The notes under the pieces were generated by a model. The model did no database searches and was not told the origin of the DNA. It worked only from the letters and a program-made list of their open reading frames with translations. From contig JBKDWF010000040.1 of assembly GCA_046338525.1 (NCBI GenBank), positions 46,764-110,763 of the forward strand: DNA of 64,000 nt, read 5' to 3'. The translations under genes were made by a program, and so were the position numbers. Below, in pieces: positions 777 through 31,823 of the stretch. Position 1 is the first letter of the stretch, and each line of letters starts with the position of its first letter. This stretch comes from Holosporales bacterium. GTDB taxonomy: Bacteria > Pseudomonadota > Alphaproteobacteria > JAJTHO01.

Positions 777-1511
777 ATGGGATTCGGCGACAAACTCAAG
801 GCGACTTTTGGCACCGTCAATAGCGGTGACTCACTGCGTCCTGCTCCCTACGCCGGAGAAGACAAGATGGGAGCGTACCCCGCCGATGTTAGCGTTCCCG
901 CATTAGAAGGCAAACGCCAACTGTTCACCACCCGCGTTTTCGCGTTGGCGTTTACCGTGAGCATGCTGCTCAACGTCGTGCTGGCCTTTAGCCTAAGCGT
1001 CCTCATGCCGCTCAAACGGGTTGAACCATTTTTGCTTACCTTCAGCGATAAGAGCCAGCAAATCGTCCGTGTTGAGCCTATCAGCAAGGACGCCAGCGGC
1101 TTTCAGCTTCTCATCGAGAGCATGGCGAATGAATTTGTCAAAATCCGCGAGGAATTTATTTTTGACGAACAGGAACAGCAACGGCGCTGGACACAATACA
1201 TAAGACCTCGCGTACCGCAGCGTGAGTTTGAGTCTTTTCTTAAGGAAAGGGCTGAAGTAATTCCCAAAATTCGCGATGCCGGCCTTGGACTAAATGTTGA
1301 AATCGTTAGAACACAACGAGTAAGTCCCAATACCATCGAAGTATACTTTGAAACAACAATCGTTGATAAACGCGGCACGGTTAAAGGGCGCAATTCTTAC
1401 ATTGCCCGCATTTCGTTTGGCTTCCGGCAACAGGCCATCTCCCTCAGTGAACAATATCTTAACCCTCTTGGGTTTACAGTGCTTACTTATCAACGGATAG
1501 AAGCACGATGA
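777..1511 (+). CDS. virB8: Type IV secretion system protein VirB8
   Basis: Bitopic architecture: a short N-terminus, one TM (FALAFTVSMLLNVVLAFSLSVLM), then a periplasmic NTF2-like domain ending in the VirB8-typical NPLGF motif. The stop overlaps the virB9 start (ATGA). Confidence 0.8.
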   Translation: MGFGDKLKATFGTVNSGDSLRPAPYAGEDKMGAYPADVSVPALEGKRQLFTTRVFALAFTVSMLLNVVLAFSLSVLMPLKRVEPFLLTFSDKSQQIVRVEPISKDASGFQLLIESMANEFVKIREEFIFDEQEQQRRWTQYIRPRVPQREFESFLKERAEVIPKIRDAGLGLNVEIVRTQRVSPNTIEVYFETTIVDKRGTVKGRNSYIARISFGFRQQAISLSEQYLNPLGFTVLTYQRIEAR

Positions 1512-3148
1512 AGGGGTTGTTACCCTTAATAGTTGGCCTCTTTTTAGCGTCTCATGCACAGGCGCAGATCGGCCTTGCGCCGCCGCTAGGCAACCCCAAC
1601 ACCGTTCAGGGCGGCGGACAGCCTGATTTTATTCAGCAAACACAGCAAGACATACAACAGCAATCCCAAGGCAACTACCCCGACATGGTGCGGGACTTAA
1701 CCCCCTTGGGGGCTATCCAGCAAAGCTGGAACAACCCCGTCCCCAGCAGTGGCCAGATTTCCCCCGGTATTGTCCGCTACGTCTGGCGACCCGACTACGT
1801 CATGGCTATCCGGACGCGGGAATTCATGCAAACCACTATTGAACTGCCGCAATGGGAGAGTATTTCAGAAATTATTTTAGGGGACAGAACCGTTTTTGAA
1901 GCTCAAAAACTAGGTAAAGACTATATGCTTGCCATCCGCCCCACGCATCCAGGGGCTGATACCAACATGACGGTCATTGGTTCATCGGGAAATATCTACA
2001 ATTTTTATCTACGTTCGGAAGGCTGGAATTCCAAAAACATCACGGACTTCACCGTATTTGTCTTAGCTAACCCAGCCAATGCAGGTGCTTCTAACAGCAT
2101 CGGGGCAGTTCCTCATGCCCCCGGCGCTGGAACACCTATAAACGCCCTTACCGGACAACCCTTTGTGAACCAGCCCATGAGCGGGCTTACTGGCACACCC
2201 AGCGGCACCGCTTTTACCGGCAACACCGCACCCACCACCCCAGAATTTGTGCGTTCCATTGCCTTTGATCCCACCAACCTGCGCTTTGATCTAAAGATTT
2301 ACGCCCCCACCCCTGCCGACGTTGAGATTGCCCCCCTGCGGGCATTTACCGATGGCCTGTGGACGTATTTTGACTACGGAGAGAAAGCCGACACGGTGCG
2401 CCGCCCCGTTGTCTTTCGTGTTGTGGATGGCGTGGACAGCATGGTCAACACCCGCACCATGGGGCCAAGAGGCAATATCATTGTTGCCGAAGCCATTGGC
2501 AATTTCACCCTGCGCAATGGTGATCGCGTCGTTTGTGTTTACCAAGCTGGTGCGCCAAGAACTTTTGAAGGCAACCGCAGCATGCCGCCGCCAGTGCCCA
2601 GTAATGATCCTTCCCTTTTCTTTAACAACCGCCTTGATGGCGCTGCCGACAACGGACTTGGCCCCCAGTATAGCGGCTCCCCCATTGGCGGCGTCAACCG
2701 TCAGCCTAATTTTGCCAACGGCAACGGCGGCGCGATTGGGGGAAATTCGGTTCCAGCCGTTGCTGGCCCCATCGCCGCTCAGGGCATTGCCAACTATCAA
2801 AATTCCCCCATTGTGCCGCTTCAGCCCGCGCCGCAACCTGGCAGTTACAGCCAAGCCTACGGCGGTGTAGCCAACAATATCAGCATCGCTGGCCCCGCCA
2901 GCGTCGGCGGCCCACAATTGTACAGCAACCTACCATCACCTACCCAGACACTACCCCCTGGCTATACCCGACCACAAAGCATCTATAATAACAATTCCAT
3001 CACCACAGTACCCGCAACCACCGGCATAGGTTTTGGCCAACGCCCCCCACTTCCATCCATACCCGTACTACCTTCCAGTGGCGCGCGTACCTACGAGCCA
3101 TCACAACCTCCATCCCCCGCTGCGCTGCAGCAAGGATGGATAAAGTAA
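1508..3148 (+). CDS. virB9: Type IV secretion system protein VirB9 (CagX/TrbG family) with long low-complexity linker and C-terminal tail
   Basis: Signal peptide MKGLLPLIVGLFLASHAQA. The N-domain (VRYVWRPDYVMAIRTREFMQTTIELPQWE...YNFYLRSEG) and C-domain (FDLKIYAPTPADVEIAPLRAFTDGLWTYFDYGE...FRVVDGVDSMVNTRT...FTLRNGDRVVCVY) match the VirB9 fold. A roughly 200-aa P/G/N/S/Q-rich tail follows. Confidence 0.8.
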   Translation: MKGLLPLIVGLFLASHAQAQIGLAPPLGNPNTVQGGGQPDFIQQTQQDIQQQSQGNYPDMVRDLTPLGAIQQSWNNPVPSSGQISPGIVRYVWRPDYVMAIRTREFMQTTIELPQWESISEIILGDRTVFEAQKLGKDYMLAIRPTHPGADTNMTVIGSSGNIYNFYLRSEGWNSKNITDFTVFVLANPANAGASNSIGAVPHAPGAGTPINALTGQPFVNQPMSGLTGTPSGTAFTGNTAPTTPEFVRSIAFDPTNLRFDLKIYAPTPADVEIAPLRAFTDGLWTYFDYGEKADTVRRPVVFRVVDGVDSMVNTRTMGPRGNIIVAEAIGNFTLRNGDRVVCVYQAGAPRTFEGNRSMPPPVPSNDPSLFFNNRLDGAADNGLGPQYSGSPIGGVNRQPNFANGNGGAIGGNSVPAVAGPIAAQGIANYQNSPIVPLQPAPQPGSYSQAYGGVANNISIAGPASVGGPQLYSNLPSPTQTLPPGYTRPQSIYNNNSITTVPATTGIGFGQRPPLPSIPVLPSSGARTYEPSQPPSPAALQQGWIK

Positions 3149-3174
3149 TACTACAAAAAATTAAGGAGAGAGCG

Positions 3175-4560
3175 ATGTTACAGAAAATAAAAAGCCACCA
3201 TTTGATCACCGCAGCCTTGTGCCTGTTGTTGATAGGCTGCGCGAGCACGCCATCAGAACAACCAACTGTAAAACCTGTACTACCTATTGCTATAGATAAC
3301 GCAACAAACCGGCCTTTCTTCTGGGCGTACCAAGATCACCTAGGAGACCCTCTACCAAACAGATCCATAAAATCCGTTGTTTTACCCGAAGCCTTGTTAT
3401 CTGATGTATTACTCGGATTAATCGCGGACAGCGATTTACAACTAAATATAGACCCGGAAATTTCTGATCGTGGCCTGCAAAACGTCAACCTATCTGGCAC
3501 CCTTTCCGAAGCGTTAAATACTCTAGCTCAAGATAATGATTTTTTCGTGCTAAGACAGGGGCAGACGCTATACCTGAAACACAGCCTCAGCTACACTGTG
3601 CCCTTGCCTCCATTGGGTTTTTTTAGCGATTATCAAAGAGATAACCCAAAAAGCAACGCGGCATTATATAACGCCTCCCGCAACCCTTACCGCTCTTTTG
3701 TTGAAGCCCTTACCGCCGCCGGAGCTGTCAGTGTCAACGTTGACAGCAAAGAACGTCTGCTTCACTTCACTGCCAGCCGCGCCAGTCTTGCCGCAGTAGA
3801 CGCATTCCTAGAAGAACAGCGCCGCCTACCTACTGTGGCTTTTCGCACCCGAATTATCAGCTACGCCAACACAGCGTCCCCCAACGATCTTATTCCCGGT
3901 GCTAAAGCACAGGGCGATGCTTGGTTAGGAAAATTCAATGCCGATGATATTGTTCGTCACCTTACCGCTCAACGCTTGGGTAATAGCGTTATTGAAAACG
4001 GTCTCATCATTGTTCCCCTTGGCGGTGAAATACACGCCTCCGCCGGGGTTAATTCTGCCACAGAAGGTTGTCCCATGCTGGACAATCCTATAGGAGCATC
4101 ACTGTTGCAAATCGCCACCAGGAATCAAGATGGTGTCTTAGGGGTAAGCCTTACCTTACAAGCTGTTAATCTAGAGCGTCCTAGTGTACCATGCCGCCTG
4201 CCCGATACTTTACCTTTAATTGCCAACACCCAAACCTTTAATATTGAAGGTGGACGTTCCGTGTTCTTGCCCGGTGTCACCATCGGCCAAGACCGCAACC
4301 TAGGTCTGATTCTCGAATCCCCAGCTATTATCGGCCACATTACCGTTAAACCACCCCGCCCATTTCCGTCTAAGCCATTAGTTGTTAACGGTACGGGTAT
4401 TAGCATTTCCCAAGTCACGCCCATCACTCAAGAGCAACCGCCCCTGAAACCTGAGGAGAAACCCGCAAAAGCAGAAAAAAACTCCAAAAACACTAAAGAT
4501 ATAAAATCAAAGAAGAAACACACTAATAAAAAACAAAACACCATCACGTCAGAACAATAA
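3175..4560 (+). CDS. Lipoprotein of unknown function with secretin-N0/STN-like segment, embedded in the T4SS cluster
   Basis: The start was chosen at the ATG at 3175, six nt after an AAGGAGAGAG SD. The ORF track starts it at 3136. Lipobox LLIG|C. The segment NVNLSGTLSEALNTLAQDNDFFVLRQGQTLYLK resembles secretin-N0/STN domains. A beta-rich C-terminal region and a Lys-rich tail follow. It is co-oriented between virB9 and virB10. Confidence 0.6.
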   Translation: MLQKIKSHHLITAALCLLLIGCASTPSEQPTVKPVLPIAIDNATNRPFFWAYQDHLGDPLPNRSIKSVVLPEALLSDVLLGLIADSDLQLNIDPEISDRGLQNVNLSGTLSEALNTLAQDNDFFVLRQGQTLYLKHSLSYTVPLPPLGFFSDYQRDNPKSNAALYNASRNPYRSFVEALTAAGAVSVNVDSKERLLHFTASRASLAAVDAFLEEQRRLPTVAFRTRIISYANTASPNDLIPGAKAQGDAWLGKFNADDIVRHLTAQRLGNSVIENGLIIVPLGGEIHASAGVNSATEGCPMLDNPIGASLLQIATRNQDGVLGVSLTLQAVNLERPSVPCRLPDTLPLIANTQTFNIEGGRSVFLPGVTIGQDRNLGLILESPAIIGHITVKPPRPFPSKPLVVNGTGISISQVTPITQEQPPLKPEEKPAKAEKNSKNTKDIKSKKKHTNKKQNTITSEQ

Positions 4561-4569
4561 AAGTGATTT

Positions 4570-6285
4570 ATGTCACAAATTTTATTGACATATTCTAATT
4601 TTTGGCGATACTGGATACATCGACAAGATCGAGGTAAACAGATCATGGATAAAAGCCCCGGCATTTTCGGGTTTCACAGTTTTTTGCTCATGGCTATTTT
4701 ATGCCTAGCGGTACTAGGCCTATCTGCCTGCGGCAAAGACGAACCGCCCAGCCCACAGCAACAACCGCAACAAGAGCAAAAAGCCGATACCACGCCAGTT
4801 CAGGATCTTCTCAACATTGCCAACCAACAAAAAGAGTCCCCAAAAAAACCAGCCCTCCTAAAAAATCTTACCGGCGACATCAATCTTGGTAGCGGCAATA
4901 CCATTGGCGACGATCAAATTCGTGATATTACTCTTGAAAATGAAGGCGATGAACCACTCACCATCAAAAACATCACCCTCAACCCCCAAAATGTAACGGA
5001 ATTTGTTCTCGGCGGTAATTGCCTAGCCGGAGTTGTGCTTGATCCTTCACGAAAAGCATGCCGCTTAGAAGTTACCTTCAGACCCGTTAACAACCAAGAA
5101 ATTTCCGCCAGCATTGTTATCACCCACACAGGACAAAATGACACTCTCATAATTCAACTTTCCGGTTCCGGTGCAGAAGCCTATATTCCCCCAGAAATTG
5201 CTCAAGAAAAACCCACAGAACCTACCCAACAGCAGATCGAAGCCATGCGTCTGCAGATGGAACGACGCCAGGGACGGCTCTCCAGCACCCCATCGCTCAA
5301 GGGGCAGCTCCGCAATCAATGGATTATGTCCGACGCCGACTACAAAGATATCGGTTACGGTAAAACAACAGCCACCTTTCCCATTGATAGAACGCGGATG
5401 ATTACCAGCGATCGCTATATTCCTGCTGTCTTGGAAAATACCATCAGTTCACAAATTCCCAGAGGCCGGGTTGTTGCCGTTATTGAAAACCACGTTTATT
5501 CTGCCGAAGGTAGAAACATCCTTATCCCAGCAGGTAGCCGCGCTATTGGCGAATACGATGGCTCTAATAAGGCCGGAACGTCACGCCTTACCGTTGTTTG
5601 GAACCGTATCATTCGCCCCGACGGTGTTGGTATAAATGTTCGCTCCCCTTCCGCCGATCCTATGGGGCGTGTTGGTTTAATTGGTGATGTTGACAATCGC
5701 CTTTTCGATAGATTCGGCGTACCTCTACTGATATCCGCCATTGGTGTTGCCGCCAATTACGCCGCCTCACCCTCACAGGTCACTACCACCACGACCACAG
5801 GAGCATTGGGCATTCTTGGAACATCCACTTCAGAAACAACTACTCGGGAAAATCAAGCCGCACGGCAGTTCAGTGCCGATGCAGTACAAAAATCCCAAGA
5901 GTTCATCCAAAACACAATTTCAATTCAACCAATTATTACTGTTCCAGCCGGAACACGCTTCGTTATACTTCCCACACAGGATATCGAATTCAAAAGCCCG
6001 CAGCTCCTCACCGTTGCGGGAGAAGCGGGCAATATTGTCAGCCAAGCGCAGGCTCTTATTCGCGCCCTACAACGCGGAGACATCGCTGGCGGCTCAGAGC
6101 GGCTTATTGAAATTATTGGCCAAGTATCAAAAGCCGGCGCAATGGGGCAGCCAGGATTCGATACGAGCGGCTCTCCTACTGGTGCTTTTGGTGTTGATAA
6201 CAGCGGCACCAATCAAGTAGGAGGTGCCGCAAATAGTTACGGGCCGGGCCGCTCCAATATTAACCCTCCTATAAATAAGCCATAA
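4570..6285 (+). CDS. virB10: Type IV secretion system protein VirB10 (TrbI family)
   Basis: It has a short N-terminus, one hydrophobic segment and a PQ-rich region. The C-terminal VirB10/TrbI domain follows: AVLENTISSQIPRGRVVAVIENHVYSAEGRNILIPAGSRAIGEY...RLTVVWNRIIRPDGVGINV...GDVDNRLFDRFG. The start could instead be the ATG at 4645, which has a GAGG RBS and an LSAC lipobox-like motif. Confidence 0.85.
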   Translation: MSQILLTYSNFWRYWIHRQDRGKQIMDKSPGIFGFHSFLLMAILCLAVLGLSACGKDEPPSPQQQPQQEQKADTTPVQDLLNIANQQKESPKKPALLKNLTGDINLGSGNTIGDDQIRDITLENEGDEPLTIKNITLNPQNVTEFVLGGNCLAGVVLDPSRKACRLEVTFRPVNNQEISASIVITHTGQNDTLIIQLSGSGAEAYIPPEIAQEKPTEPTQQQIEAMRLQMERRQGRLSSTPSLKGQLRNQWIMSDADYKDIGYGKTTATFPIDRTRMITSDRYIPAVLENTISSQIPRGRVVAVIENHVYSAEGRNILIPAGSRAIGEYDGSNKAGTSRLTVVWNRIIRPDGVGINVRSPSADPMGRVGLIGDVDNRLFDRFGVPLLISAIGVAANYAASPSQVTTTTTTGALGILGTSTSETTTRENQAARQFSADAVQKSQEFIQNTISIQPIITVPAGTRFVILPTQDIEFKSPQLLTVAGEAGNIVSQAQALIRALQRGDIAGGSERLIEIIGQVSKAGAMGQPGFDTSGSPTGAFGVDNSGTNQVGGAANSYGPGRSNINPPINKP

Positions 6286-6289
6286 TTTT

Positions 6290-7396
6290 ATGAGCACCCT
6301 CAACAACAGCACCGCCCTTGACAATCCCCTACTCCTAAGGGCTCTGGAACCTATTGAAAATTATTATTCTAGTTCTGCAGTAGAAGAAATCGCCATCAAC
6401 CGCCCTGGCGAAATCATGATCAAAAAACATGGCAAATCTGGATGGGAGACAGTAACAGCAGAAGAGTTAAACCTGCGAAGCCTGCACGCTTTGTGCCGTA
6501 TGCTTGCCAATGTTACCGAACAATCTTTTGATCTCAACGATCTTCCTATTCTTGCAGCGACCTTGCCGCAAGGTCATCGTTTTCAAGCTGTACTTGGCAC
6601 CAACGTACGCTACGAAATGGGGGATACCAATGGCGTGGCAATATGCATAAGACGCTTTGATCTTAATAAAAAATTTAGCCTAGATGATTTTGATTTACGC
6701 CCACAACAAAAAGCTAAAGAAGACCTGGTGCACCGGGGCGTTGAAAAGAAACGTTACAGCGATTTTCCTTACGAAGATTTGGTATCAGCCGTACAACATG
6801 GTGAAGCTGTATTAATATCCGGGGCAACGTCCACAGGAAAAACAACATTTTTAAATGCACTTATTGATTTTATTCCACGCGATCGGCGTATTGTTACCGT
6901 AGAAGATACTCGGGAAGTTGTCGTACCTCACCCTAATCGAGTTCACTTTGTTGTCTCGCGTACCGCTGGAGCCAATAAAATTGGCTATACTCATATTCTC
7001 GACACCGTTGTTCGCATGACTCCTGATGTTATTGTTTGCGGAGAGGTTTCCGTCACAAATGCCAAGAGCATTTACCGTCTGATGACAACGGGGCATTCAA
7101 ACTTTATGGCAACTATTCACGCCGATTCACCGGAAATGGCACTACGCGCGTTTTGGCAAAACCTTACTCAGACCGATCCAGAACTTGATGCCGAAGCCGC
7201 CGTCGAAATTCTCGCCCGCAGCTTTGGCCGGATTGTACAAATTGACCGCTCCTCCGGTAAGCGCATTATAACCGCTGTGGATGCGCCAAATCTGGTTAAA
7301 AAAGTCGCTCATGAAGCATCGGGCATGACAATGGTACAAAAACCTGCTAATACACCAAAAACAAGAGGAAAAAAAGATGGTTCTAAGCCCTTTTAA
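6290..7396 (+). CDS. virB11: Type IV secretion system ATPase VirB11
   Basis: Walker A GATSTGKTT, followed by VTVEDTREV, a Walker B region and a His-box. The N-terminal domain matches VirB11/TrbB traffic ATPases. Confidence 0.9.
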   Translation: MSTLNNSTALDNPLLLRALEPIENYYSSSAVEEIAINRPGEIMIKKHGKSGWETVTAEELNLRSLHALCRMLANVTEQSFDLNDLPILAATLPQGHRFQAVLGTNVRYEMGDTNGVAICIRRFDLNKKFSLDDFDLRPQQKAKEDLVHRGVEKKRYSDFPYEDLVSAVQHGEAVLISGATSTGKTTFLNALIDFIPRDRRIVTVEDTREVVVPHPNRVHFVVSRTAGANKIGYTHILDTVVRMTPDVIVCGEVSVTNAKSIYRLMTTGHSNFMATIHADSPEMALRAFWQNLTQTDPELDAEAAVEILARSFGRIVQIDRSSGKRIITAVDAPNLVKKVAHEASGMTMVQKPANTPKTRGKKDGSKPF

Positions 7397-9461
7397 CCGC
7401 CAAGATTACGCCGAACAGAAACAGGCAACACTATACCTTTTTCAAGTACTTATCGGCTCTATTATTGCCTTCTTTTTCTTTGTTCCCTTGGTCACAGCAA
7501 CGTACACATTTATTAAATTTGGTGTCTCCCAGAAAGTCGTTTTAGCGGTAGAACAATACTTTAGCATGGCCAAAAACCCCATTTCTTGGTGGCAATGGCA
7601 CCTAAACTGGATTACCACTATTCGCCATGGAAATCCTTATGATTGGAGATTTATTTTTTTACCCGTTGAGATTGTTACATCATTAGGCGGCACCTTGGTC
7701 GTTTTTGTCGGCTTTATGTTAAGCAATCCTTACACTTTTCTCGTCACGACTTTTGGAAACGCGCGCATGGCAACCAGCCGCGACATCGACAAGATGCAGC
7801 TCCTTAAAGGTTGGATCGTCGTTCTAGGCGAGTGTCAACGTAAATTTCTTAAGCTTCCTGAAACCTTATCCGTGTTGTGCGTCGCCCCCCCTGGAACAGG
7901 AAAGACAGTCGCTATTGTCGTACCTACTATCCTTACCTGCAATAATGTATCTATGATTATCAATGATGTTAAACCAGAACTGTTTGATATTACAAGCGGA
8001 TATCGCAGTCAACACAGTTTTTGCCTCAAACTAGAATGGGCTGCAACCGACAATCCGGAACGAGGCATTTTCTATCCCCGTTGGAACGCTCTCTCTCCTT
8101 CTTCTATGCCGCCCCCCGGCGCACAGCGCGACTTGTATATTGATCGCTTAGTGAATATTCTTATTGAAGAACCAAAAGGAAGTGCCGATCCACACTGGAC
8201 AAAACGTGGTCGAGCCGTACTGGCCGGATTTATCCACTATCTTTGTTCCAAAATAGAAGCGGGAAACTGGAATAATATCCCCCTGAACTGGCAAGGGAAA
8301 GAGCCAAGTATTCCCATGCTACTCGACTGGATGACCGAAGCCCAAATTTCTGCCCAAGAAAAAGTCGAGCAACTGCGTAAAACCAACCCAATGGCCGCCA
8401 TGAGCGCGGATCCCATGCGTGATCTGCTGACCGATGCCGTGAAAGAATGCCGTGCCGGTAATTACAGCAACCGCGCCATTTTAGAACTTACCGCGTTGGC
8501 TAATACACCTGATAAGGAACGTGGTTCTATCATGTCTACTATGGATGGGGGACTTGTCGTATTTAAAAACAAAGCTGTACGCGATCGTACCAGCCAAAGC
8601 GATTTTTCCTTCATGGACGTGCGCGGGATGCGCGATCCAGTCACGGGAGAATATAAACCAATGAGCATTTATGTCTGCGTGACTCAGCAAGACGCCAAAG
8701 CCTTGGGTGTTATCACCGGTCTTTTAGTCGAAGCTTTATCCGCTTGGCTTGTCGCCTATCCGCCAAAATCCACCACACCCGATGGTCAAAAAGTCGGACC
8801 CTTTCCGGCTTTGTTTGTCCTTGATGAGTTTCCGCAAATGCCTAAGCTAAGGGCTTTAATTGATGGTCCGGCTGTTGGTCGTGGGCAAAAAGTAAGTTTT
8901 TTAATGATTGGCCAAGACTTAGGACAAATCACAGCTGTATACGGAAAAGACGAAGTAGAAACTGTTATCTCAACCACCGCCGCCAAGGTTGTTCTTGCAC
9001 AAAACAACGAGACTACCGCAAAACGCTTTTCAGAAATGGTGGGTCAACGAACAGTAGAAACAGCATCGCGTTCTCGTACTATGGGGGTAAGCCGGGAAAC
9101 AAATCCATTTGCTGCCAACGTTCAACGCAGCTTACAAGGACAGCCGCTCCTCCGCCCCGAAGATTTTATGACCATCCCCAAAGGAAAGCACTACGTTCTT
9201 TACCAAGGATATCTGTCTAGGCCTATTTTATGCGATACACCAGCATATTATAAACACCCATTACTTAGAACCCTTGTGGACCCGAGCAAGGGTGGGAAAT
9301 ACAAAGCTGCTTCCCCTATGCCCGCTTTCATGACCGAACGCCGCAAAGCGGAATACTTAGCCGAACAAGAGCAAGAACATCTTAAAAAAGCCATGCAAGC
9401 CAGCCTAGAGATAGAAGAAACCCAAAAATCAAAACGCTTACCCATAAATTCCGGGGGCTAA
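7377..9461 (+). CDS. virD4: Type IV coupling protein VirD4/TraG family
   Basis: N-terminal TM helices, Walker A VAPPGTGKTV, a Walker B-like LFVLDEFPQM and the length (694 aa) fit T4CP. It overlaps the virB11 3' end by 20 nt. Confidence 0.9.
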   Translation: MVLSPFNRQDYAEQKQATLYLFQVLIGSIIAFFFFVPLVTATYTFIKFGVSQKVVLAVEQYFSMAKNPISWWQWHLNWITTIRHGNPYDWRFIFLPVEIVTSLGGTLVVFVGFMLSNPYTFLVTTFGNARMATSRDIDKMQLLKGWIVVLGECQRKFLKLPETLSVLCVAPPGTGKTVAIVVPTILTCNNVSMIINDVKPELFDITSGYRSQHSFCLKLEWAATDNPERGIFYPRWNALSPSSMPPPGAQRDLYIDRLVNILIEEPKGSADPHWTKRGRAVLAGFIHYLCSKIEAGNWNNIPLNWQGKEPSIPMLLDWMTEAQISAQEKVEQLRKTNPMAAMSADPMRDLLTDAVKECRAGNYSNRAILELTALANTPDKERGSIMSTMDGGLVVFKNKAVRDRTSQSDFSFMDVRGMRDPVTGEYKPMSIYVCVTQQDAKALGVITGLLVEALSAWLVAYPPKSTTPDGQKVGPFPALFVLDEFPQMPKLRALIDGPAVGRGQKVSFLMIGQDLGQITAVYGKDEVETVISTTAAKVVLAQNNETTAKRFSEMVGQRTVETASRSRTMGVSRETNPFAANVQRSLQGQPLLRPEDFMTIPKGKHYVLYQGYLSRPILCDTPAYYKHPLLRTLVDPSKGGKYKAASPMPAFMTERRKAEYLAEQEQEHLKKAMQASLEIEETQKSKRLPINSGG

Positions 9462-13041: not shown

Positions 13042-13272
13042 TGGGGATAACTTTTTTATCTTTTTTATACACAAAGTTTTCCACAGTTATTTGTATGAAA
13101 ATACTTTTTAAAATAAGGAATTAAAAATTATCCCCAAGGATTAAAGCACTTTTGTTCACAGTGTTTTTTTTACCAAAAACTCATATAAGAAGAATAGAGG
13201 AGTGCGTATAGTTTTGCTATACTCTTAAAATAGGCCTGTTATCCACAATCTATCCACAAGCCTATGGATAAT
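13042..13272. promoter_or_regulatory. Cluster of six DnaA-box-like 9-mers in AT-rich intergenic DNA (candidate oriC or DnaA-regulated region)
   Basis: One perfect box: TTATCCACA at 13239-13247. Five one-mismatch boxes: tggggataa at 13042-50 (reverse); TTTTCCACA at 13076-84; TTATCCCCA at 13128-36; CTATCCACA at 13250-58; tatggataa at 13263-71 (reverse). Confidence 0.45.
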
Positions 13273-13999
13273 TATAATTTGCTACAAAAACCTTTAGTAG
13301 CGACAACACCACAATCGCTAAAATTGCTATTCCCACAAGGATTTGCGCTGGAACAATAATAAAAAATATTTGTACCTGTGGCATGAGGCGTGACAACATT
13401 CCAACAGCTATATTGAAAATAATTCCTAAAATAAGCAGTGGTGCAGCTAATTGAACACCGATATGAAAAGCATCAGCGAAGATGCGGCTTAGATGATTGC
13501 TTGCATCAATAATATTGAATGTTGTACCAATAGGGAAAGAAATATAGCTTTGCGCCAAAGCCTTAAAGGTGTTGTGGTGAAGTTCAGCGGTAAAAATAGC
13601 AGTCACCCCAGCCATCGTTAAAAACACGGAAAATAAGTTGCCCTGTTGCCCAAGGCTTGGGTTTAACAGTGAGGCATTTGACATCCCTGTTTGTAAACCA
13701 ATAATAGAACCGGCAACATCCAAGGCACTGAGCAGAAATTTTGCCATTAATCCAAAAAAAACGCCAATGGCAATTTCTTGAATTATATAAACAAATGTTT
13801 GTAGACCACTTTCTGGAACAGAAGGAAGTGGGGTAAGAGGCCAAAGAACTAAGCTGAAAAGGATAGCAAAGGCTAGGCGCACTTTTGCAGGAACAAATAT
13901 TTGATCCAAGCCAGGCATTAAAGAAATAAGGCTCCCTACCCGACAAAAAGTCATTAAAAAAGCAAATGTTTCCTGCGGAAGAAGATTTAGCAGAGACAT
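13262..13999 (-). CDS. fliR: Flagellar biosynthetic protein FliR
   Basis: 245-aa polytopic membrane protein. Its N-terminus TFAFLMTFCRVGSLISLMPGLDQIFVPAKVRLAFAIL is typical of FliR. It lies directly downstream of fliQ. Confidence 0.85.
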   Translation of the reverse strand: MSLLNLLPQETFAFLMTFCRVGSLISLMPGLDQIFVPAKVRLAFAILFSLVLWPLTPLPSVPESGLQTFVYIIQEIAIGVFFGLMAKFLLSALDVAGSIIGLQTGMSNASLLNPSLGQQGNLFSVFLTMAGVTAIFTAELHHNTFKALAQSYISFPIGTTFNIIDASNHLSRIFADAFHIGVQLAAPLLILGIIFNIAVGMLSRLMPQVQIFFIIVPAQILVGIAILAIVVLSLLKVFVANYNYP

Positions 14000-15838: not shown

Positions 15839-17884
15839 TTACATCCTCAATACGAAAAAAAAAATCGCAAAAAATAGAGCGACAATCGGAGAAAATCGTG
15901 CTGTTTTTAAAGCAACAAGGGCATTCATGTCGCGTAAAACATGGCGATGCAGAAGAATTTTTTTATCAAGTCTTACGTATTCGTTGCGTGCATTTTCAAA
16001 TTCGATAGAATCTTTCTGGCGTTCTTGGGGACTATCAATAATATCCAAAATTTCTGCAATATATCCATTTTCGGCAACCTGCTCAAGGCTTTTTCTAATC
16101 CGTGCTCGACGTGGCTCACTGTTAAAATAGTCAAGATTCTGTTTCAATGTATTACTAAACCAAGTTGTTATTTTTGGAAAAGATTTGTTACCATATTTTT
16201 GATTAATTAAATGAAAAATACGAAGCAAGGCAACGTGAGATATCCAAGGTTGGCTCGTATCGTTTAATCGATGGAAATACTCTTCTTTGAGAAATTTACA
16301 GCGGCTGGCAATAAAGGCAGCAAGATGTCGATCGATTACAGAATTTTTATAATTTTGATGGGCAGTTTTAGCAAGCGTAGCCTCAAGAGCTATCAAGATA
16401 TCCTCAATCTCTAAGACTATTGTATCTTCAAAAAGAGGGCTTAAGCATGGCACACGTGTATTGAGTTCATAGATACATCGTTCAAATCCATAGCCAAGAC
16501 CTTGATTTATTATAACTCCTTTGAGAAGTTCTAGAATTTTATCAAGGCGACTTTGTTCTTCAGAAACAATATCTTGAGCGCGCAACCAAGCAGATGCAAG
16601 TCCATATCGGATAATATCTACACAAAACTGTCGTTTTTGATTATCATAAAGTCCTGTGAGAAACAGACCACCAAGTCCAGCTACGTCAATGGCAATACCT
16701 TGATAAAACAAGGGAGCTTCGGGGTAGAGCGCAATTAAAGCTTTTGCACTGGTAACGTTGAGCGGTTGGTTAGTGCGCGTAGCAACGGCAAATATTTCAT
16801 GTAAGGAATTAGCAGTATCGTCGGATTCAAGACTTCGACGAAGCCAGATATTTATTTTATTATCTTGGAGAATTTTGACAGAACCACCATCTTTAGTTTT
16901 TCCTAACGCATAGACAAGAGAAGGAAGATTTATATAGTTCATATTATTAAATACCAACGCGCGACCAGCTTTTTTGGCGAATGTCGGTACCTTAGGAACA
17001 ATAGTTTGCCCCCCTAACCATTGTAATATATCATTAATTGTCCACCGATTATTTGGATTGTCATGAAGGCATCCTTTAAGAAAGTCCATGGTTTCTTTTG
17101 AAAAACGTTTGTCACCGATGAAGGTAGCTACGGTACCGTTGGTTGTTTTTTTAAAGAGGAGGCTGTCCAATGTAAGATTTTCAACGGGATTTCCCCCCTC
17201 TAAAAGATGAAGACTAAGCAAGCCAAGATTGTAAATGTCTTCTTGAAAGCTAGTGGTGTTTTTTTTATAAGCAGGTTCTACAAGCATCATTTCGATAGGC
17301 TCAACCGTAAAAGGAATCCGCCATCCAGGATGCCCCATAAAGCACTCACCTAAAACGATGGATGTTTTTGTATGATCTGTGTAAAAGATATTGCTTGGAG
17401 ACAATGCTCTGTAAAATAAAGAATTTTTATCAAGTTCGGCAAATGTATTGATAATGGGTCGAATAAAGCGTTCGCGAACATCCAATTCTGTCCAAGGTGT
17501 GATTTTTTGTTTCCCGTTGTCGGGAAATACTGACGATCCAGGTAAAGGAGTGATAACAAATAAAAGGCTGCCAAAACCGGCACCAAGTGTCTTTTTTTCA
17601 GATGCTTCAGGGTGAATAATAATTGTATCTGATGTTTTTTTGAGTTGTTCGATCATATCGTAGCGTGGCGACATTAATTTATCGGCCATAAAAGCAACCA
17701 TCAAACGTTCTTCGTTCAGTAAATCCGTTGCTTTAAAGGCAAAAACTTGACCGAAAGATAGGTCGTGCATAAATTGAGGGATAATATCCCCCATATGCAC
17801 AACATACCGATCATTCAGAATAATCCGATTTTTTTTACGGCCATCGATGCCGTTTTGAGATTGAGGCTCTTTTGTTGAATTCAC
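15839..17884 (-). CDS. Protein-kinase-fold protein with degenerate catalytic motifs (predicted pseudokinase/atypical kinase), C-terminal TM anchor
   Basis: Kinase subdomains are recognisable in canonical order and spacing: a degenerate Gly loop DLSFGQV; VAFM in place of VAIK (Lys to Met); a catalytic loop YRALSPSNIFY (cf. [HY]RDLKPENIL, Asp to Ala); GEC in place of DFG; VEP in place of APE; DIYNLGLLSLHLLEG (cf. DxWSxG); R280. About 370 aa of helical sequence follow. The protein ends in a hydrophobic tail, FSPIVALFFAIFFFVL. Confidence 0.6.
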   Translation of the reverse strand: MNSTKEPQSQNGIDGRKKNRIILNDRYVVHMGDIIPQFMHDLSFGQVFAFKATDLLNEERLMVAFMADKLMSPRYDMIEQLKKTSDTIIIHPEASEKKTLGAGFGSLLFVITPLPGSSVFPDNGKQKITPWTELDVRERFIRPIINTFAELDKNSLFYRALSPSNIFYTDHTKTSIVLGECFMGHPGWRIPFTVEPIEMMLVEPAYKKNTTSFQEDIYNLGLLSLHLLEGGNPVENLTLDSLLFKKTTNGTVATFIGDKRFSKETMDFLKGCLHDNPNNRWTINDILQWLGGQTIVPKVPTFAKKAGRALVFNNMNYINLPSLVYALGKTKDGGSVKILQDNKINIWLRRSLESDDTANSLHEIFAVATRTNQPLNVTSAKALIALYPEAPLFYQGIAIDVAGLGGLFLTGLYDNQKRQFCVDIIRYGLASAWLRAQDIVSEEQSRLDKILELLKGVIINQGLGYGFERCIYELNTRVPCLSPLFEDTIVLEIEDILIALEATLAKTAHQNYKNSVIDRHLAAFIASRCKFLKEEYFHRLNDTSQPWISHVALLRIFHLINQKYGNKSFPKITTWFSNTLKQNLDYFNSEPRRARIRKSLEQVAENGYIAEILDIIDSPQERQKDSIEFENARNEYVRLDKKILLHRHVLRDMNALVALKTARFSPIVALFFAIFFFVLRM

Positions 17885-26254: not shown

Positions 26255-28906
26255 CTAGGCAAACATGCCACGGAAAAAATCATCGGCGGTGCGGGCGTGG
26301 GCGGCGAGGGTCTGTTCGGCGGCCTCGATGCTGGCCTCGTTTAAGATTGCTGCTGTTTGGGCATTGACCCCTTTGGTGAGGCGCAAAAGGTTTTGGAGCT
26401 GTTGATAAAGCTCATAAATAGTGGCCAGCGAAGCGGTGTCGCTTTCAGCGCGCAGGGCCGCGGCGGTACTCTGGTAATGCTTCCCGCCCAGCAGTTGCCG
26501 TGTCTGGGCAATAAACTCCAGCGTCACCATCCCGCCGGGGATATTTTTAACGTCCCAAACGTTTTTGGGCGGATGCGCCGCCGCCCGGCGGTCGTGCATG
26601 GTTTTAGCATCACTTTTAAGCACTTGAGCATCGCGCGGCAGGGCTAACAATGCTGGCATAATACCTTGTAATTTATGACACAATCCCGCATCCCCGGCCA
26701 CGGGGCGGGCGCAGGTCAGGGCCAAAAACTCCCACGTCTGCGCGGAACCCGTGCGGTAATAGGCCTCAAAGGCCTTGAAGGACGATGCCACCGCTCCCGC
26801 TTCCCCGTCGGGGCGCAGGCGGGTGTCCACCTCGTACAGCGGCTGTAAGGCCCTGTCGGCCGGCAGGGTGAGGGCTGAGAGCACCCGCTGGGCAAGGCGA
26901 TTGTAATACACGGGGGCGGCTAGGGGCTTGCCGCCGTCTGAGCTTGCCCCATCGGGCGCATCATAGACAAACACCAGATCGAGATCGGAACCAATGGCCA
27001 AGGCGTTACTCCCCAACTTGCCAAAGCCCAGCACGGCAAAGCCGCTGCCGGGCACATGGCCGTGGACAGCGGCGAAATCGGCCCGGACAATCTCCAACAC
27101 TGCCCGGACGCAGGCTTCGGCCAGTGCCGTGAGCCAAGTGCCAATTGTTGCCGCTTCAGGGGCTTGCTGAAACACCCGAATCATCAAACTAAACAGCCAG
27201 TCGCGTTGCCATAAACCAAGGGCGCGCAGCTTTTCTTCCCGCCCGTCCCGCTGGGCTAGGGTGGCGGTGAGATCGTCGGTGAGGCTTTCCGGCGGCGGCA
27301 GGGCCGCATCGGCCTGTCGCATCAACAGGGTATCCATGAGATGCGGCTGGGCCAGCACGATTTCTGCCAGCGGCGGGGCGCTGGTCATGATGGCCACTAG
27401 GGTGGACAGCACGGCGGGGTTGGATTTTAGGAGAGCAAACAACTGCACCCCGGCGCTGAGGCGGGAGATAAACTGATCAAAGGCCAAGACCCCGGCATCG
27501 GGCGCGTCGCTGGCCGCGCACGCCTCCAGCACCAAGGGGGTAATTTCTAACAATAGTTGCTGCGCCCTAGGGGTCATCAGCACGCGGTAGCCTCGGTTAT
27601 GCCAACGGTGCAGGCATGCCGCCACCACCTTTGGATCGCGAAACCCCATGGAGGTTAGGGTTTGCAGCATCCCGTCCCCCACCTCGGCGGTGAACTGGGT
27701 CAGGTCGGCCTTGGGCTTGGCGTCGGTGTTTTCAAACAGGGCGCTGTAGGCGTCGGCAACATGGCGGCGGTGGGTGTCCAGAACGGTGCGGAAATGGGCG
27801 GTGTCGGGATAGCTAAAACTCTGCGCCACTTGCTCCAAATCCTCAGGAACAATAGGCAAACGGTGGGTTTGCTCATCGTGCAGCAACTGAATCCGGTGTT
27901 CCGTCTTGCGCAGGAAAACATACGCCTCCCAAAGCTGGGAGGCGGTGACGGAAAACAGCCGCCCGGTTTCCACCAACGCATCCAAGGCCTCTAAGGTGCT
28001 GCGCCCGCGCAGGCGTTTGTCGCGCCCTCCCCAGATAAGCTGCTGCGTCTGCACAAAAAACTCAACCTCACGGATGCCGCCAAGGCCGGTTTTGATGTTG
28101 AGGCCCGGGGCGGCGGGGGTGAAGGATCGCTGGGGGTTAATCTGGGTTTTGATGGCGTGGATTTCATCAAGGGCGGCAAAATCGAGGCTGCGCCGCCAAA
28201 CAAACGGCTGTATCAGGCGGGTAAACTCGGCCCCGGCCACGGGGTCGCCGGCGATGACCCGAGCCTTGATCATCGCCGCCCGTTCCCAGGTTGCGGCAAT
28301 CGAACTGTAATACGTCTCCGCTGCGGCCAGCGAGACAGCCAGCGGCGTGGACGACGGATCCGGGCGCAATCGCAGGTCGGTGCGGAAAACATACCCGTCG
28401 GCGGTATGCGCTGAGAGAATTTCTGTCATGCGGCGCACTAGGCGCACGGCCATGGCCTGAGCCTCACCCTTGGTGAGATGGGCACGAAGGCGGGCATCGT
28501 CATAAAAAACGATGAGGTCAATATCGCTGGAAAAATTCAGCTCCTCCGCCCCCAGTTTGCCCATGCCAACGACGACAAGCCCCGCGTGGGGGGCATAGGG
28601 TGGGGGCAAGGCAAACTGAAGCCGTCCGGCCTGCTGGGCCTCATTGAGGCTTGCCTCTAGGGCTTTTTCCACAGCGATGCAGGCAAAACGACTCAGAGCC
28701 GCCGTCTGTTCCAGCAGCGGCAGAGTATCGGTAAATTCCGCGTGCGCGAGATAAAGAAGCAACCGCTGACGATGCTGGCGCAGAGCCAGCATCGTTGCGG
28801 CGGCATCGTCGGTGGGGATAGTGGCGGCTTCGGCTTCTAGGCGAGCCAGTATTTGCTCGCCTAGGGTTGGTGGAGAGGGTGTTACCTCAGGCCATCGGGC
28901 TTCCAA
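26255..28906 (-). CDS. glnE: Bifunctional glutamine synthetase adenylyltransferase/adenylyl-removing enzyme
   Basis: Two nucleotidyltransferase domains: [21 protein letters not shown] and [21 protein letters not shown]. Confidence 0.85.
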
Positions 28907-28963
28907 AGGGGGGAGGAAGGTGCCGAAGGCTACAAGAGAAAATTTTATAATACTAAACTTTGT

Positions 28964-29134
28964 TTATTGGTTTATTGCAGAACCAATTCTAGAGAAACTC
29001 TCGCTTACGTCCGCTCTTAGCAAGCTAAGCACAGCAATAAGGGCAACAGCGATTAAGGACGCCAGCAAGGCATATTCTATTATGGTCACCCCAGAGGTAT
29101 CCCGACGCAGCCGGGTAAAAAGTTTTTTAATCAT
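28964..29134 (-). CDS. flp: Flp/Fap family type IVb pilin precursor (56 aa)
   Basis: Translated by hand from the minus strand. The ORF is under 60 aa and so is absent from the ORF track: MIKKLFTRLRRDTSGVTIIEYALLASLIAVALIAVLSLLRADVSESFSRIGSAINQ. A GGAGA RBS lies 8 nt upstream. The canonical Flp prepilin motif G/VTxIEYxL is followed by a hydrophobic helix. Confidence 0.7.
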   Translation of the reverse strand: MIKKLFTRLRRDTSGVTIIEYALLASLIAVALIAVLSLLRADVSESFSRIGSAINQ

Positions 29135-29299
29135 AACGATGTCTCCTTTATAGAATGCTCGGTAGCGTCCCTGTGTGTTATCGTCAATACAAGATAACGC
29201 CGACCCAGATTTCGATTACAAAGGCACTATACAGCAGCATTCGTTAAAAAAGAGTTAATTTTTGACACGCTCTCTTTTTTTAGTTTTATACTCAACATT

Positions 29300-30229
29300 A
29301 TGCCTCAAAGTCTGACCGTTATCGTTCCTGTGTACAACGAAGCCCGCGCCTTAGCTCTGTTTTGGCAGCGGGTTTCTCCTATTCTGGAGGCCAGCCATTT
29401 AATGTGGTCGGTGCTGTTTGTTGATGATGGCAGTCGTGACGATACCTTTGCTTATATTCAGCAATTAGCCAAAGAGCATCCCGATCATGTTCGCGGCATA
29501 CGGCTTGCCCGGAATTTTGGTAAGGAACGGGCCTTGGCCGCCGGTCTTGATCGCACTGCGGCGGATATTACGATTATTATGGACGTGGATTTGCAAGACC
29601 CGCCGGAACTGATTCCCGAGATGCTGGAGGCGTGGCGCAAGGGTGCCGCCGTTGTCATGACCGCCCGGCGGGGCCGGGGGGAAGATTCTTGGCCAAAAAA
29701 AATTACGGCCCGTTTTTTTTATAAAATCTACAATGTGATTGCCCGGGTGCCCATTGAGGAAAACGCGAGTGATTTTTGTTTGTTGACAAAACCTGCGGTA
29801 GAAGCCCTGCGCCAATTGCGGGAGCGGTGCCGTTTTACCAAAGGCTTGCTGGCGTGGATTGGGTTCACGCCAGTGCATTTATATTATGATCGCCCAGCGC
29901 GGAGTGACGGCACTTCGTCGCGTTGGCGACCCTTAGGATTATGGCGGTTTGCCTTGGACGGGCTAACGAGTTTCAGCACCCGGCCCCTGCACGCTTGGAC
30001 GTATATTGGGCTGATTATCGCTAGCGTCTCGTTTCTTTTTGGGGCTAGCATTCTGGTGCGGACGTTGTTGTTCGGTGCGGATTTGCCGGGCTACGCATCC
30101 TTGATGGTAGTGATAACCTTTTTGGGCGGGGTGCAACTGGTAAGCCTTGGTGTGATCGGCGAATACTTGGGGCGAATCTACGCCGAGGTTAAGGGGCGGC
30201 CGTTGTATCTGGTGCGGGAGGAGTGCTGA
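29300..30229 (+). CDS. GT2-family polyprenyl-phosphate glycosyltransferase (ArnC/GtrB/Dpm1-like)
   Basis: VIVPVYNE...VDDGSRDDT...DVDLQDPP (DXD) are GT-A GT2 motifs. Two C-terminal TM helices are typical of bactoprenol-phosphate sugar transferases. Confidence 0.8.
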   Translation: MPQSLTVIVPVYNEARALALFWQRVSPILEASHLMWSVLFVDDGSRDDTFAYIQQLAKEHPDHVRGIRLARNFGKERALAAGLDRTAADITIIMDVDLQDPPELIPEMLEAWRKGAAVVMTARRGRGEDSWPKKITARFFYKIYNVIARVPIEENASDFCLLTKPAVEALRQLRERCRFTKGLLAWIGFTPVHLYYDRPARSDGTSSRWRPLGLWRFALDGLTSFSTRPLHAWTYIGLIIASVSFLFGASILVRTLLFGADLPGYASLMVVITFLGGVQLVSLGVIGEYLGRIYAEVKGRPLYLVREEC

Positions 30230-31823
30230 GGGGCAGCAACACACAGCCGTTCATGAAAACCTCATAGCTAGGCACTTTTAGGAGCGGCAGGAAACATCCA
30301 CGCAGTGTTTCCATGCCCGACTGGTTCAGAAAATACGCTATGAAATCTTCAGGCATTTTTACGGCACCTGCCTTATGTAATTTGTATTTATGGCGGTCAA
30401 CGACAACCAATCCGGCGGCACGAAGATCGTTTTTAGTGAAGGCATCCAGAAGGCTGACTTCTCTAGGATAGGTTGTAAGATTGCTCGCTGGTTGAAAATA
30501 CCAGAGTGCGCCAACGGTATTTTTGTTTTTCCACGGCACGGTGTTAGGTGTGGGAAACGGAGTGAACGGGGTTGTTGTCAGGCTAATATACGAAACAGAG
30601 GACGGAATATCGGCTAGGCGGGTACGAATCTCATGCTCTGATGTCCACATAAGAACATCGCTTTTTTTTGCTGTCACATTGTTAAAAGCCATTGGAAAAA
30701 AAAGCACTAAAGCCATAGCCAGCAACCCGACCAGCCGGTGGCTTGCTAAACAATACGCCCAGCCGACAATGAGCGAGGAAAGAATAAAAACCCCCGTATA
30801 ATGGTACGTGAAACCACGCATCTGAGCCAGCGCGAGGAGAAAAAAGCCGCCCGCGAGAATCAGGCTCCAGAATAAAAATTTATTTTGAATGTCTGGTAAG
30901 GTATAGCGTTTACGTATAAGCAGAATGCTCAAGGGAATGCCGGGAAGACTCATACTAACATTGCGCAAAATCGTGAAATCAAATCCATCATAACGTGCAT
31001 AAATCATCGTGAGAATAGGCAGCAGCGTTTCCATAAAGTACCGCTCTTGCGTCCAGACAACGCCGCAAAAAAGCAGTCCCATGCTAACGGAGGCAATGCT
31101 TTCAACACTCAACACCCACGACCAGAAACACCGCCGAACAAGCGTGCCAACGGCCACTATGATAAAAAGAATGCCCGCTTGAGGCTTGAGGCACACCGCT
31201 ATTCCGGCCAGAATACCAATAAGAAGGCGAATGCCTTTGTGCAGAATAATCTTCTCGGTGCGCAGGAAAGTCGCCAGTCCAAACGGCAACCACCATGCAA
31301 ACAACAGGTGATCCCGCTGGCCAAAAATCATGCCGGGCAGCAAAAATAAACCGTAGGCCAGCAACACGGCCATCATCCGCCATTGCCAGCCTTGTAAACC
31401 CGGTATCCGGCGCAGTGCCGCGACACAAAGCGCCCAGCCTGCGAGCAAGGCCCCCGCAAAAAATGCACGAAAACACCAGAGAATTGACCAGCCTGTCTGT
31501 TGTGCCACCCAAGCGGGCAAAAGGTTCAGGTAAATCATCATGGGCGGGTTGGTTTCCACGCCCGCGGTGGGATAAATGGGATAGGCACCATCAACGACCC
31601 GTTGTGCCAATAATAGCAACCAAGCGTTGTCAGTATTAAAAGGCACCAAGGCCTGATTGATTTGGGACAGTAAGATAATGCCAGCCGTTATCCAGCCCCA
31701 ATAGGGCGCGGCTGCGATAAACCAGCGGGGCGGCGTTGAGGGTGCTGCCGTTAAAAAGTTTAATATCTTGTTGAGTAATTTAAAGATAGCCAAGGTGTGA
31801 TTCTTAATTTTGTGATGGGTCAT
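30189..31823 (-). CDS. GT-C fold membrane glycosyltransferase (ArnT/PMT-like, GT39/GT83 family)
   Basis: 544 aa with about 11-13 TMs, a first periplasmic loop carrying acidic residues (NTDNAW...RVVDG), and a C-terminal periplasmic domain. Convergent with the GT2 gene, with a 41-nt 3' overlap. Confidence 0.65.
   Translation of the reverse strand: MTHHKIKNHTLAIFKLLNKILNFLTAAPSTPPRWFIAAAPYWGWITAGIILLSQINQALVPFNTDNAWLLLLAQRVVDGAYPIYPTAGVETNPPMMIYLNLLPAWVAQQTGWSILWCFRAFFAGALLAGWALCVAALRRIPGLQGWQWRMMAVLLAYGLFLLPGMIFGQRDHLLFAWWLPFGLATFLRTEKIILHKGIRLLIGILAGIAVCLKPQAGILFIIVAVGTLVRRCFWSWVLSVESIASVSMGLLFCGVVWTQERYFMETLLPILTMIYARYDGFDFTILRNVSMSLPGIPLSILLIRKRYTLPDIQNKFLFWSLILAGGFFLLALAQMRGFTYHYTGVFILSSLIVGWAYCLASHRLVGLLAMALVLFFPMAFNNVTAKKSDVLMWTSEHEIRTRLADIPSSVSYISLTTTPFTPFPTPNTVPWKNKNTVGALWYFQPASNLTTYPREVSLLDAFTKNDLRAAGLVVVDRHKYKLHKAGAVKMPEDFIAYFLNQSGMETLRGCFLPLLKVPSYEVFMNGCVLLPLSTPPAPDTTAAP

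Follow-up and report, generated by a model that had tools for sequence, protein, structure and literature searches.

The closest described systems are the alphaproteobacterial Cpa/Tad pilins, among them Caulobacter crescentus PilA and the solved chains 8U1K and 8U2B. These proteins belong to the Flp_Fap family and have a basic leader that ends in Gly, a mature start of the form xTxxEY, and a single hydrophobic helix within a mature length of about 40-45 amino acids. In Caulobacter, pilA comes first in the cpa/tad operon and is preceded by four degenerate CtrA sites. Flp1 of Aggregatibacter actinomycetemcomitans, the founder of the tad locus, is also a very short pilin that begins with Val, and its gene heads the order flp-tadV-rcpCAB-tadZABCDEFG. 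Detached flp paralogues occur in Rhizobiales and Caulobacterales, and a Tad locus elsewhere is expected in those genomes.

Here we analyzed a flp gene in a 64-kb window (the whole stretch of DNA studied) of an uncultured Holosporales-labelled bacterium. Its product shares the protein features of the alphaproteobacterial pilins listed above, and it resembles Flp1 in its G/VTxIEY processing site and very short length. Like Caulobacter pilA, the gene has a CtrA-type box upstream, though here one perfect box at -124 takes the place of the four degenerate sites. The setting also differs, as flp is not first in a cpa/tad operon, no assembly gene lies within about 82 kb, and the linked machinery that follows Flp1 is missing. 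We conclude that this is probably a functional Flp/PilA-type (Tad, type IVc) prepilin gene, and by analogy its product most probably works like Caulobacter PilA or Aggregatibacter Flp1.

The flp gene and its product

The gene, its parts and its immediate neighbours are as follows.

28964..29134, minus strand: flp (pilA-type) prepilin gene, 56 codons plus stop, supported by the ORF, Pfam PF04964, an annotated identical protein and dN/dS
29090..29134, minus strand: leader peptide, codons 1-15 (MIKKLFTRLRRDTSG), with cleavage predicted after Gly15 in the G/VTIIEY motif
28967..29089, minus strand: mature pilin of 41 amino acids, a hydrophobic helix and then a short polar C-terminal segment (hydropathy and solved-pilin alignment)
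29142..29146, minus strand: ribosome-binding site GGAGA, 7 nt 5' of the ATG, in the conserved block GGAGACATCGTTATG
28812..29153, plus strand: antisense 113-aa ORF, not a gene (no Pfam match; stops in relatives)
26255..28906, minus strand: glnE (Pfam GlnE, GlnD_UR_UTase), 57 nt 3' of flp on the same strand and possibly co-transcribed with it
29300..30229, plus strand: GtrB/PgfS/ArnC-like polyprenyl-phosphate glycosyltransferase (GT2) gene, divergent from flp (NCBIfam and PDB matches)

Translation from the ATG at 29134 gives a 56-aa product, MIKKLFTRLRRDTSGVTIIEYALLASLIAVALIAVLSLLRADVSESFSRIGSAINQ. The 56-codon minus-strand frame and its GGAGA site are present as the preliminary description had them, and the gap between glnE and the divergent glycosyltransferase gene, given there as 390 bp, spans 393 bp. 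The same description called the gene missed by the ORF track. It is absent under the 60-aa default, yet the exact protein is already annotated at NCBI (MFN5608672.1 and MFN9322926.1, "MAG: Flp family type IVb pilin [Holosporales bacterium]") and at JGI ("Flp pilus assembly pilin Flp"), so it was missed only through the 60-aa ORF threshold. This is a short-gene blind spot, in which a gene of fewer than 60 codons falls below the default cut-off and a longer antisense ORF can mask it.

Pfam Flp_Fap (PF04964) matched the product at 46 bits (gathering score 32.2; E = 4.6e-12), over profile positions 2-45 of 46; no NCBIfam model matched it. A short basic leader is followed by the processing motif RLRRDTSG/VTIIEY, which has the G/xxxxEY form, and G15, E20 and Y21 are invariant across 11 homologues. 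Members of the family have a hydrophobic helix of about 20 residues directly after the motif and a precursor of about 50-80 amino acids. Both are found here, with Kyte-Doolittle window means of up to 3.0 over residues 17-39 of the 56-aa precursor. Among solved Tad-filament pilins, 8U1K (PilA) matched at E = 0.0031 and 8U2B (Flp family type IVb pilin) at E = 0.0061, and flp residues 17-55 align with residues 2-40 of these 45-aa mature chains. Since both chains begin one residue before the position aligned with Thr17, cleavage is predicted after Gly15. The earlier identification of the gene as a Flp-family prepilin is therefore borne out by the above-threshold Pfam match, the processing site, the helix and the alignment to solved pilins. 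Judged by its sequence, flp has every feature expected of the Flp/PilA family and lacks local Tad linkage, which is not obligatory. Public annotation already names it, the pilin family is very large and has been described in detail, and the finding, though correct, is an ordinary one.

The 113-aa plus-strand ORF is longer than the Flp frame, which could make it the true gene and flp its antisense shadow. However, it has no Pfam match, it overlaps the 5' end of glnE, and its frame is broken by 3-4 stops in each of three related lineages (L007, L013 and L015). With a family match and purifying selection on the opposite strand, there is next to no chance that it is the gene, and the earlier view of it as an antisense artefact stands. 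An Rfam search returned only a distant tRNA and nothing in the flp region.

Conservation and selection

Exact or near-exact flp copies were found on many metagenomic contigs, and in orthologues with protein identities of 86-93%, 62% and 60% the gene is always flanked by GT2 and glnE. The glnE-proximal position, which the preliminary description had put forward for comparison with relatives, is thus kept at 60-93% identity. The gene order common to relatives is a GT-C-like gene, GT2, flp, glnE and purL; this synteny covers one fairly narrow clade, with coding-region flank identity of at least 85%.

The flp frame is intact in all four nucleotide lineages, with synonymous differences of up to 0.76 per site. 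The dN/dS ratio is 0.20-0.29 for the window gene against L013 and L015 and 0.26-0.42 for L007 flp against the same two, and L013 against L015 likewise falls within 0.20-0.42. The block GGAGACATCGTTATG, which holds the ribosome-binding site and start context, is identical in 4 of 4 lineages, and in the four-lineage alignment several upstream elements are kept within a spacer that is otherwise only 67% identical. Across 8 cluster representatives, 27 positions are invariant, including the whole RLRRDTSG..EY core.

Could flp be a decaying remnant, left over from a lost Tad locus and now neither expressed nor under selection? The preliminary description had named this option. No Tad gene was found nearby in the window, no canonical promoter or terminator was predicted, and dN/dS between the two closest lineages is about 1.5, a value that comes from only 13 substitutions. 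Against this stand the intact frame in all sampled lineages despite saturated synonymous sites, the deep dN/dS values of 0.2-0.3, the invariant start block and conserved upstream elements, and the 27 invariant positions. Decay is thus highly improbable, being contradicted by purifying selection and by the conserved position in relatives. The conserved slot, kept frame, low deep dN/dS, invariant start block and broken antisense frame together indicate that flp is under purifying selection, and on these sequence comparisons it is a real, conserved gene and not a remnant.

Tad genes and the detached position of flp

Neither Pfam scans of the large ORFs in the 64-kb window nor precomputed Pfam matches for the central 20 kb gave any Tad gene. 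The same was true of tblastn against the window with the full set of Tad proteins of reference locus L026 as queries (CpaF, TadB/C, CpaE, CpaB, secretin and CpaA/TadV peptidase), for which the sole cross-match was the paralogous VirB11 ATPase of a type IV secretion system (T4SS). These searches agree with the preliminary description, which had reported no Tad/Cpa assembly gene, prepilin peptidase or secretin in the window. The flanks, covering 10 kb on the left side and 8 kb on the right, were also without Tad genes. As a claim, the term "orphan" used in that description is local: it holds over about 82 kb, made up of the window and some 18 kb of flanking DNA.

For reference we listed the 80 nearest alphaproteobacterial flp loci from a genome scan with a Flp alignment, none of them from this clade. 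Tad genes lie within 10 kb in 63 of the 80 listed loci. At least 8 of the 80, each a full-length locus, have no Tad gene within 10 kb on either side, and in this the window gene is like the detached flp paralogues of Rhizobiales and Caulobacterales. Such copies are common among the reference loci, which makes a detached flp unremarkable. The nearest homologue outside the clade among the matches listed (51%) sits in a classical Tad locus. A Tad machine elsewhere in the genome appears to be the most likely situation.

The placement of the organism bears on how literature on the order can be used. Tad pili are reported in some Holosporales families, and most Holosporales are reported to have only incomplete type IV pili (PMC9992710). 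For the Tgt protein, the nearest matches outside the clade, among those listed, come from MAGs with the labels Rhodospirillaceae, Dongiaceae or Alphaproteobacteria, at 59-68% identity. These labels do not converge on one family, so that the family-level statement is not directly applicable to this clade.

The absence of Tad genes within about 82 kb also fits a pilin that is kept without a Tad filament, the machine having been lost or never present, and that serves as a small membrane protein in another role. One such role would be signalling from the inner membrane, which has been proposed for Caulobacter PilA in the sensing of surfaces and the control of the cell cycle; alternatively, the protein could be processed and used by a different type IV-filament-like apparatus. 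The conserved slot lies beside housekeeping genes (glnE, purL) and not beside assembly genes, the incomplete pili reported for most Holosporales point the same way, and a signalling role of Caulobacter PilA has been reported (PMC7196804). Still, the cleavage motif shows full conservation, and among near relatives in the listed reference loci detached flp genes are a common finding. The allele replacement and C-terminal hypervariability described below are also more readily understood if the product is an exposed filament subunit and not a signal buried in the membrane. We regard a non-filament role as unlikely and favor a subunit of a Tad filament.

The upstream region

Two elements were identified in the 165-nt spacer between flp and the GT2 gene.

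29243..29258, minus strand: perfect CtrA-type box TTAACTCTTTTTTAAC (TTAA-N7-TTAAC), 124 nt 5' of the flp ATG, in the spacer shared with GT2
29159..29187, minus strand: conserved promoter-like block TTGACGA-N14-GCTACCGA (four-lineage alignment), with a putative promoter role

The alphaproteobacterial promoter consensus is TTGACGS-N10-14-GCTANAWC, and the TTGACGA-N14-GCTACCGA block plausibly resembles it. A strict sigma-70 scan of the flp region returned no promoter and did not pick up this block. On the 3' side, a terminator scan and RNA folds gave no convincing minus-strand terminator in the flp-glnE spacer, so read-through into glnE is possible.

The CtrA-type box is the only perfect match to TTAA-N7-TTAAC in the 64 kb, and composition-matched shuffles of the spacer yield such a box in 0.7% of cases (p ~0.007). 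It is found at -124 or -126 in all lineages, and the sole change falls within the N7 spacer. Upstream of the listed reference flp genes there are 11 TTAA-N7-TTAA sites in 9 of 80 loci, against a shuffle expectation of 0.71 +/- 0.83 (maximum 3) for the same 80 regions; 6 of the 11 fall between -103 and -139. CtrA is well known to control pilA in Caulobacter (PMC11264516), and by analogy the conserved perfect box suggests cell-cycle or developmental control of flp. The candidate box may equally serve the divergent GT2 gene, as it lies about 42 nt from the GT2 ATG.

Allele replacement in the mature pilin

Sliding-window comparison with the near-identical L014/L015 strains revealed a drop in identity that covers the mature part of the gene.

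28910..29089, minus strand: recombinant patch of about 180 bp, comprising the mature-pilin codons and the 3' spacer

Between the window and these strains, identity is 95.8% in GT2, 98.8% in the intergenic region, 97.8% in the leader codons and 94.3% in glnE, while the mature-pilin codons are only 53.7% identical. Three 60-nt windows of the patch are 0.60, 0.47 and 0.68 identical to L015, and the flanks are 0.85-1.00 identical. Overall, a stretch of 47-68% identity is set between flanks of 94-100% identity. The L015 mature allele differs from that of the more distant L013 by about the genome-wide amount (80.5% identity, with a genome-wide level of 85%), which marks the window's own allele as the replaced one. 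This allele, V-type (VTIIEYALLASL...LSLLRAD), begins its mature part with Val at +1 and carries an unusual segment, LSLLRAD, in place of the VTTLGxN of relatives; the other is A-type (ATALEYGLLAAL). Synonymous sites of the V-type are saturated relative to the A-type, a pattern that suggests either entry from a donor outside the sampled lineages or a long-standing balanced polymorphism, and not fast local change.

The sequence comparison shows that recombination between near-identical strains has exchanged the mature-pilin allele, and that V-type and A-type, two pilin alleles of deep divergence, are both in circulation on what is by its flanking identity one genomic background. Among close alleles the variable positions (4-7, 40-41, 45 and 56-57) occur in shuffled combinations and cluster in the C-terminal third. 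A swap confined to the mature part, together with C-terminal variability, fits a surface-exposed product. With its surroundings about 95-99% identical, this swap of the mature pilin alone is a clean natural case of diversifying recombination at a Tad pilin.

Neighboring glycosylation genes

On the other side of the spacer, the GT2 gene overlaps convergently with a second gene.

30189..31823, minus strand: 544-aa polytopic membrane protein with a predicted GT-C fold (AF2 and Foldseek), in convergent overlap with GT2

The GT2 protein matched NCBIfam PgfS (E = 9.5e-74) and ArnC (E = 8.7e-45), both under the equivalog cut-offs, and the PDB entry 5EKP, GtrB (sll0501), at E = 8.7e-88. For the 544-aa protein there was no Pfam, NCBIfam, PDB sequence or PDB profile match, and only 1 of 36 family members gave a faint PMT_2 match; it has 1889 remote homologues. 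An AF2 model from a 36-sequence alignment reached a pLDDT of 85 and a pTM of 0.87. The top 21 Foldseek matches of this model in the PDB are all GT-C enzymes (ArnT, ALG12, ALG9, AftA, AftB, AftD, DPY19, STT3/PglB and PimE), the best being ArnT 5F15 (E = 6e-5, TM 0.50). Based on this confidently predicted fold, the protein belongs to an unmodelled GT-C family and is a likely partner of GT2, and the two look like a lipid-linked-sugar glycosylation pair. In the GtrB/GtrC, ArnC/ArnT and PgfS/PgfM pairs, a lipid-linked-monosaccharide GT2 likewise lies beside a GT-C-fold membrane transferase, but here the GT-C partner has no Pfam or NCBIfam model.

Such a pair could be a periplasmic glycosylation module with the Flp pilin as its acceptor, co-regulated with it through the spacer that holds the CtrA box. 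This would add to the Tad-pilin reading and does not exclude it. Besides the assignments of the two enzymes, the GT-C gene, GT2 and flp are adjacent in all relatives, the pilin C-terminus is Ser-rich and variable, and Aggregatibacter Flp1 is reported to be glycosylated (PMC6182317, citing Inoue 2000). In 2 of the 80 listed reference loci, moreover, flp-cpaA has a GT87 (GT-C) gene after it. However, the adjacency is limited to a narrow clade with conserved gene order throughout, and modules of this kind usually act on LPS or lipid A. Among the 80 listed reference flp loci, 0 contain a homologue of the 544-aa protein and 1 contains a related GT2. Two more distant homologues of the 544-aa protein are on a contig edge or short contigs and give no usable context. 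We consider glycosylation of the pilin by this pair quite unlikely.

Going further, the locus might be a stand-alone surface-variation cassette, in which a Flp under CtrA control from the shared spacer has its variable Ser-rich tail decorated by the GtrB-like/GT-C pair and its mature half exchanged by recombination. We judge this very doubtful. If true, exchange between strains would serve escape from phage, predators or host recognition, and the pair would be the first dedicated glycosyltransferase pair for a Tad pilin.

The wider window and relatives

Several other features of the window and of related loci were recorded. A T4SS block at 777-9461 on the plus strand contains virB8, virB9/CagX, a 474-aa ORF (3136-4560) with no Pfam or NCBIfam match, virB10/TrbI, virB11 and virD4; in relatives, a 60-aa ORF is also called just upstream of virB8. 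An isolated FliR-like export gene lies at 13262-13999 on the minus strand (Pfam Bac_export_1, E = 9e-53), between aroB and a membrane transporter gene, and no other flagellar or type III secretion genes are near it. A 681-aa protein encoded at 15839-17884 on the minus strand has a eukaryote-like Pkinase match just below threshold (30.2 against 31.7 bits) and could be a T4SS effector.

The window and its flanks (L181, L184-L186) include purF, purL, his genes, leuA, the acetolactate synthase small subunit gene, bioB, thiD, nadE and aroB, and also encode cytochrome bd. With its many biosynthetic genes and Tgt identities of 59-68%, the Holosporales-labelled bacterium gives the impression of a deep lineage that has undergone little reduction. 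A PIN/PhdYeFM toxin-antitoxin pair is inserted downstream of the PALP gene in the 62%-identity lineage (L013, 9729-10381) and is absent from the window. GT87-family (GT-C) genes within Tad loci were seen in L026 (10824-12014) and L056, one from a Rhodospirillaceae genome and one from Rhizomicrobium, and in L026 the gene comes directly after flp-cpaA.

A model for the flp pilin

In the favored reading, flp supplies the subunit of a Tad filament. Transcription of flp probably begins within the 165-nt spacer shared with the divergent GT2 gene, where the conserved perfect CtrA box would place it under cell-cycle or developmental control. The 56-aa precursor would insert into the inner membrane, where a TadV/CpaA-type aspartyl prepilin peptidase would cut it after Gly15 and free a 41-aa single-helix pilin with the N-terminus VTIIEY. 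A Tad/Cpa machine encoded elsewhere, with its CpaF ATPase, TadB/C platform, RcpC/CpaB and secretin, would then polymerize the pilin to build a filament that is thin and adhesive. Its exposed half may be a recombination hotspot, by which close strains come to carry very different mature-pilin alleles. In this model, cleavage after Gly15, filament assembly, a Tad locus elsewhere in the genome and CtrA control of flp are inferred.

That a Holosporales-like lineage about which little is known has kept a pilin under selection suggests that it makes Tad pili. Such pili would bear on how members of this lineage attach to hosts or surfaces.
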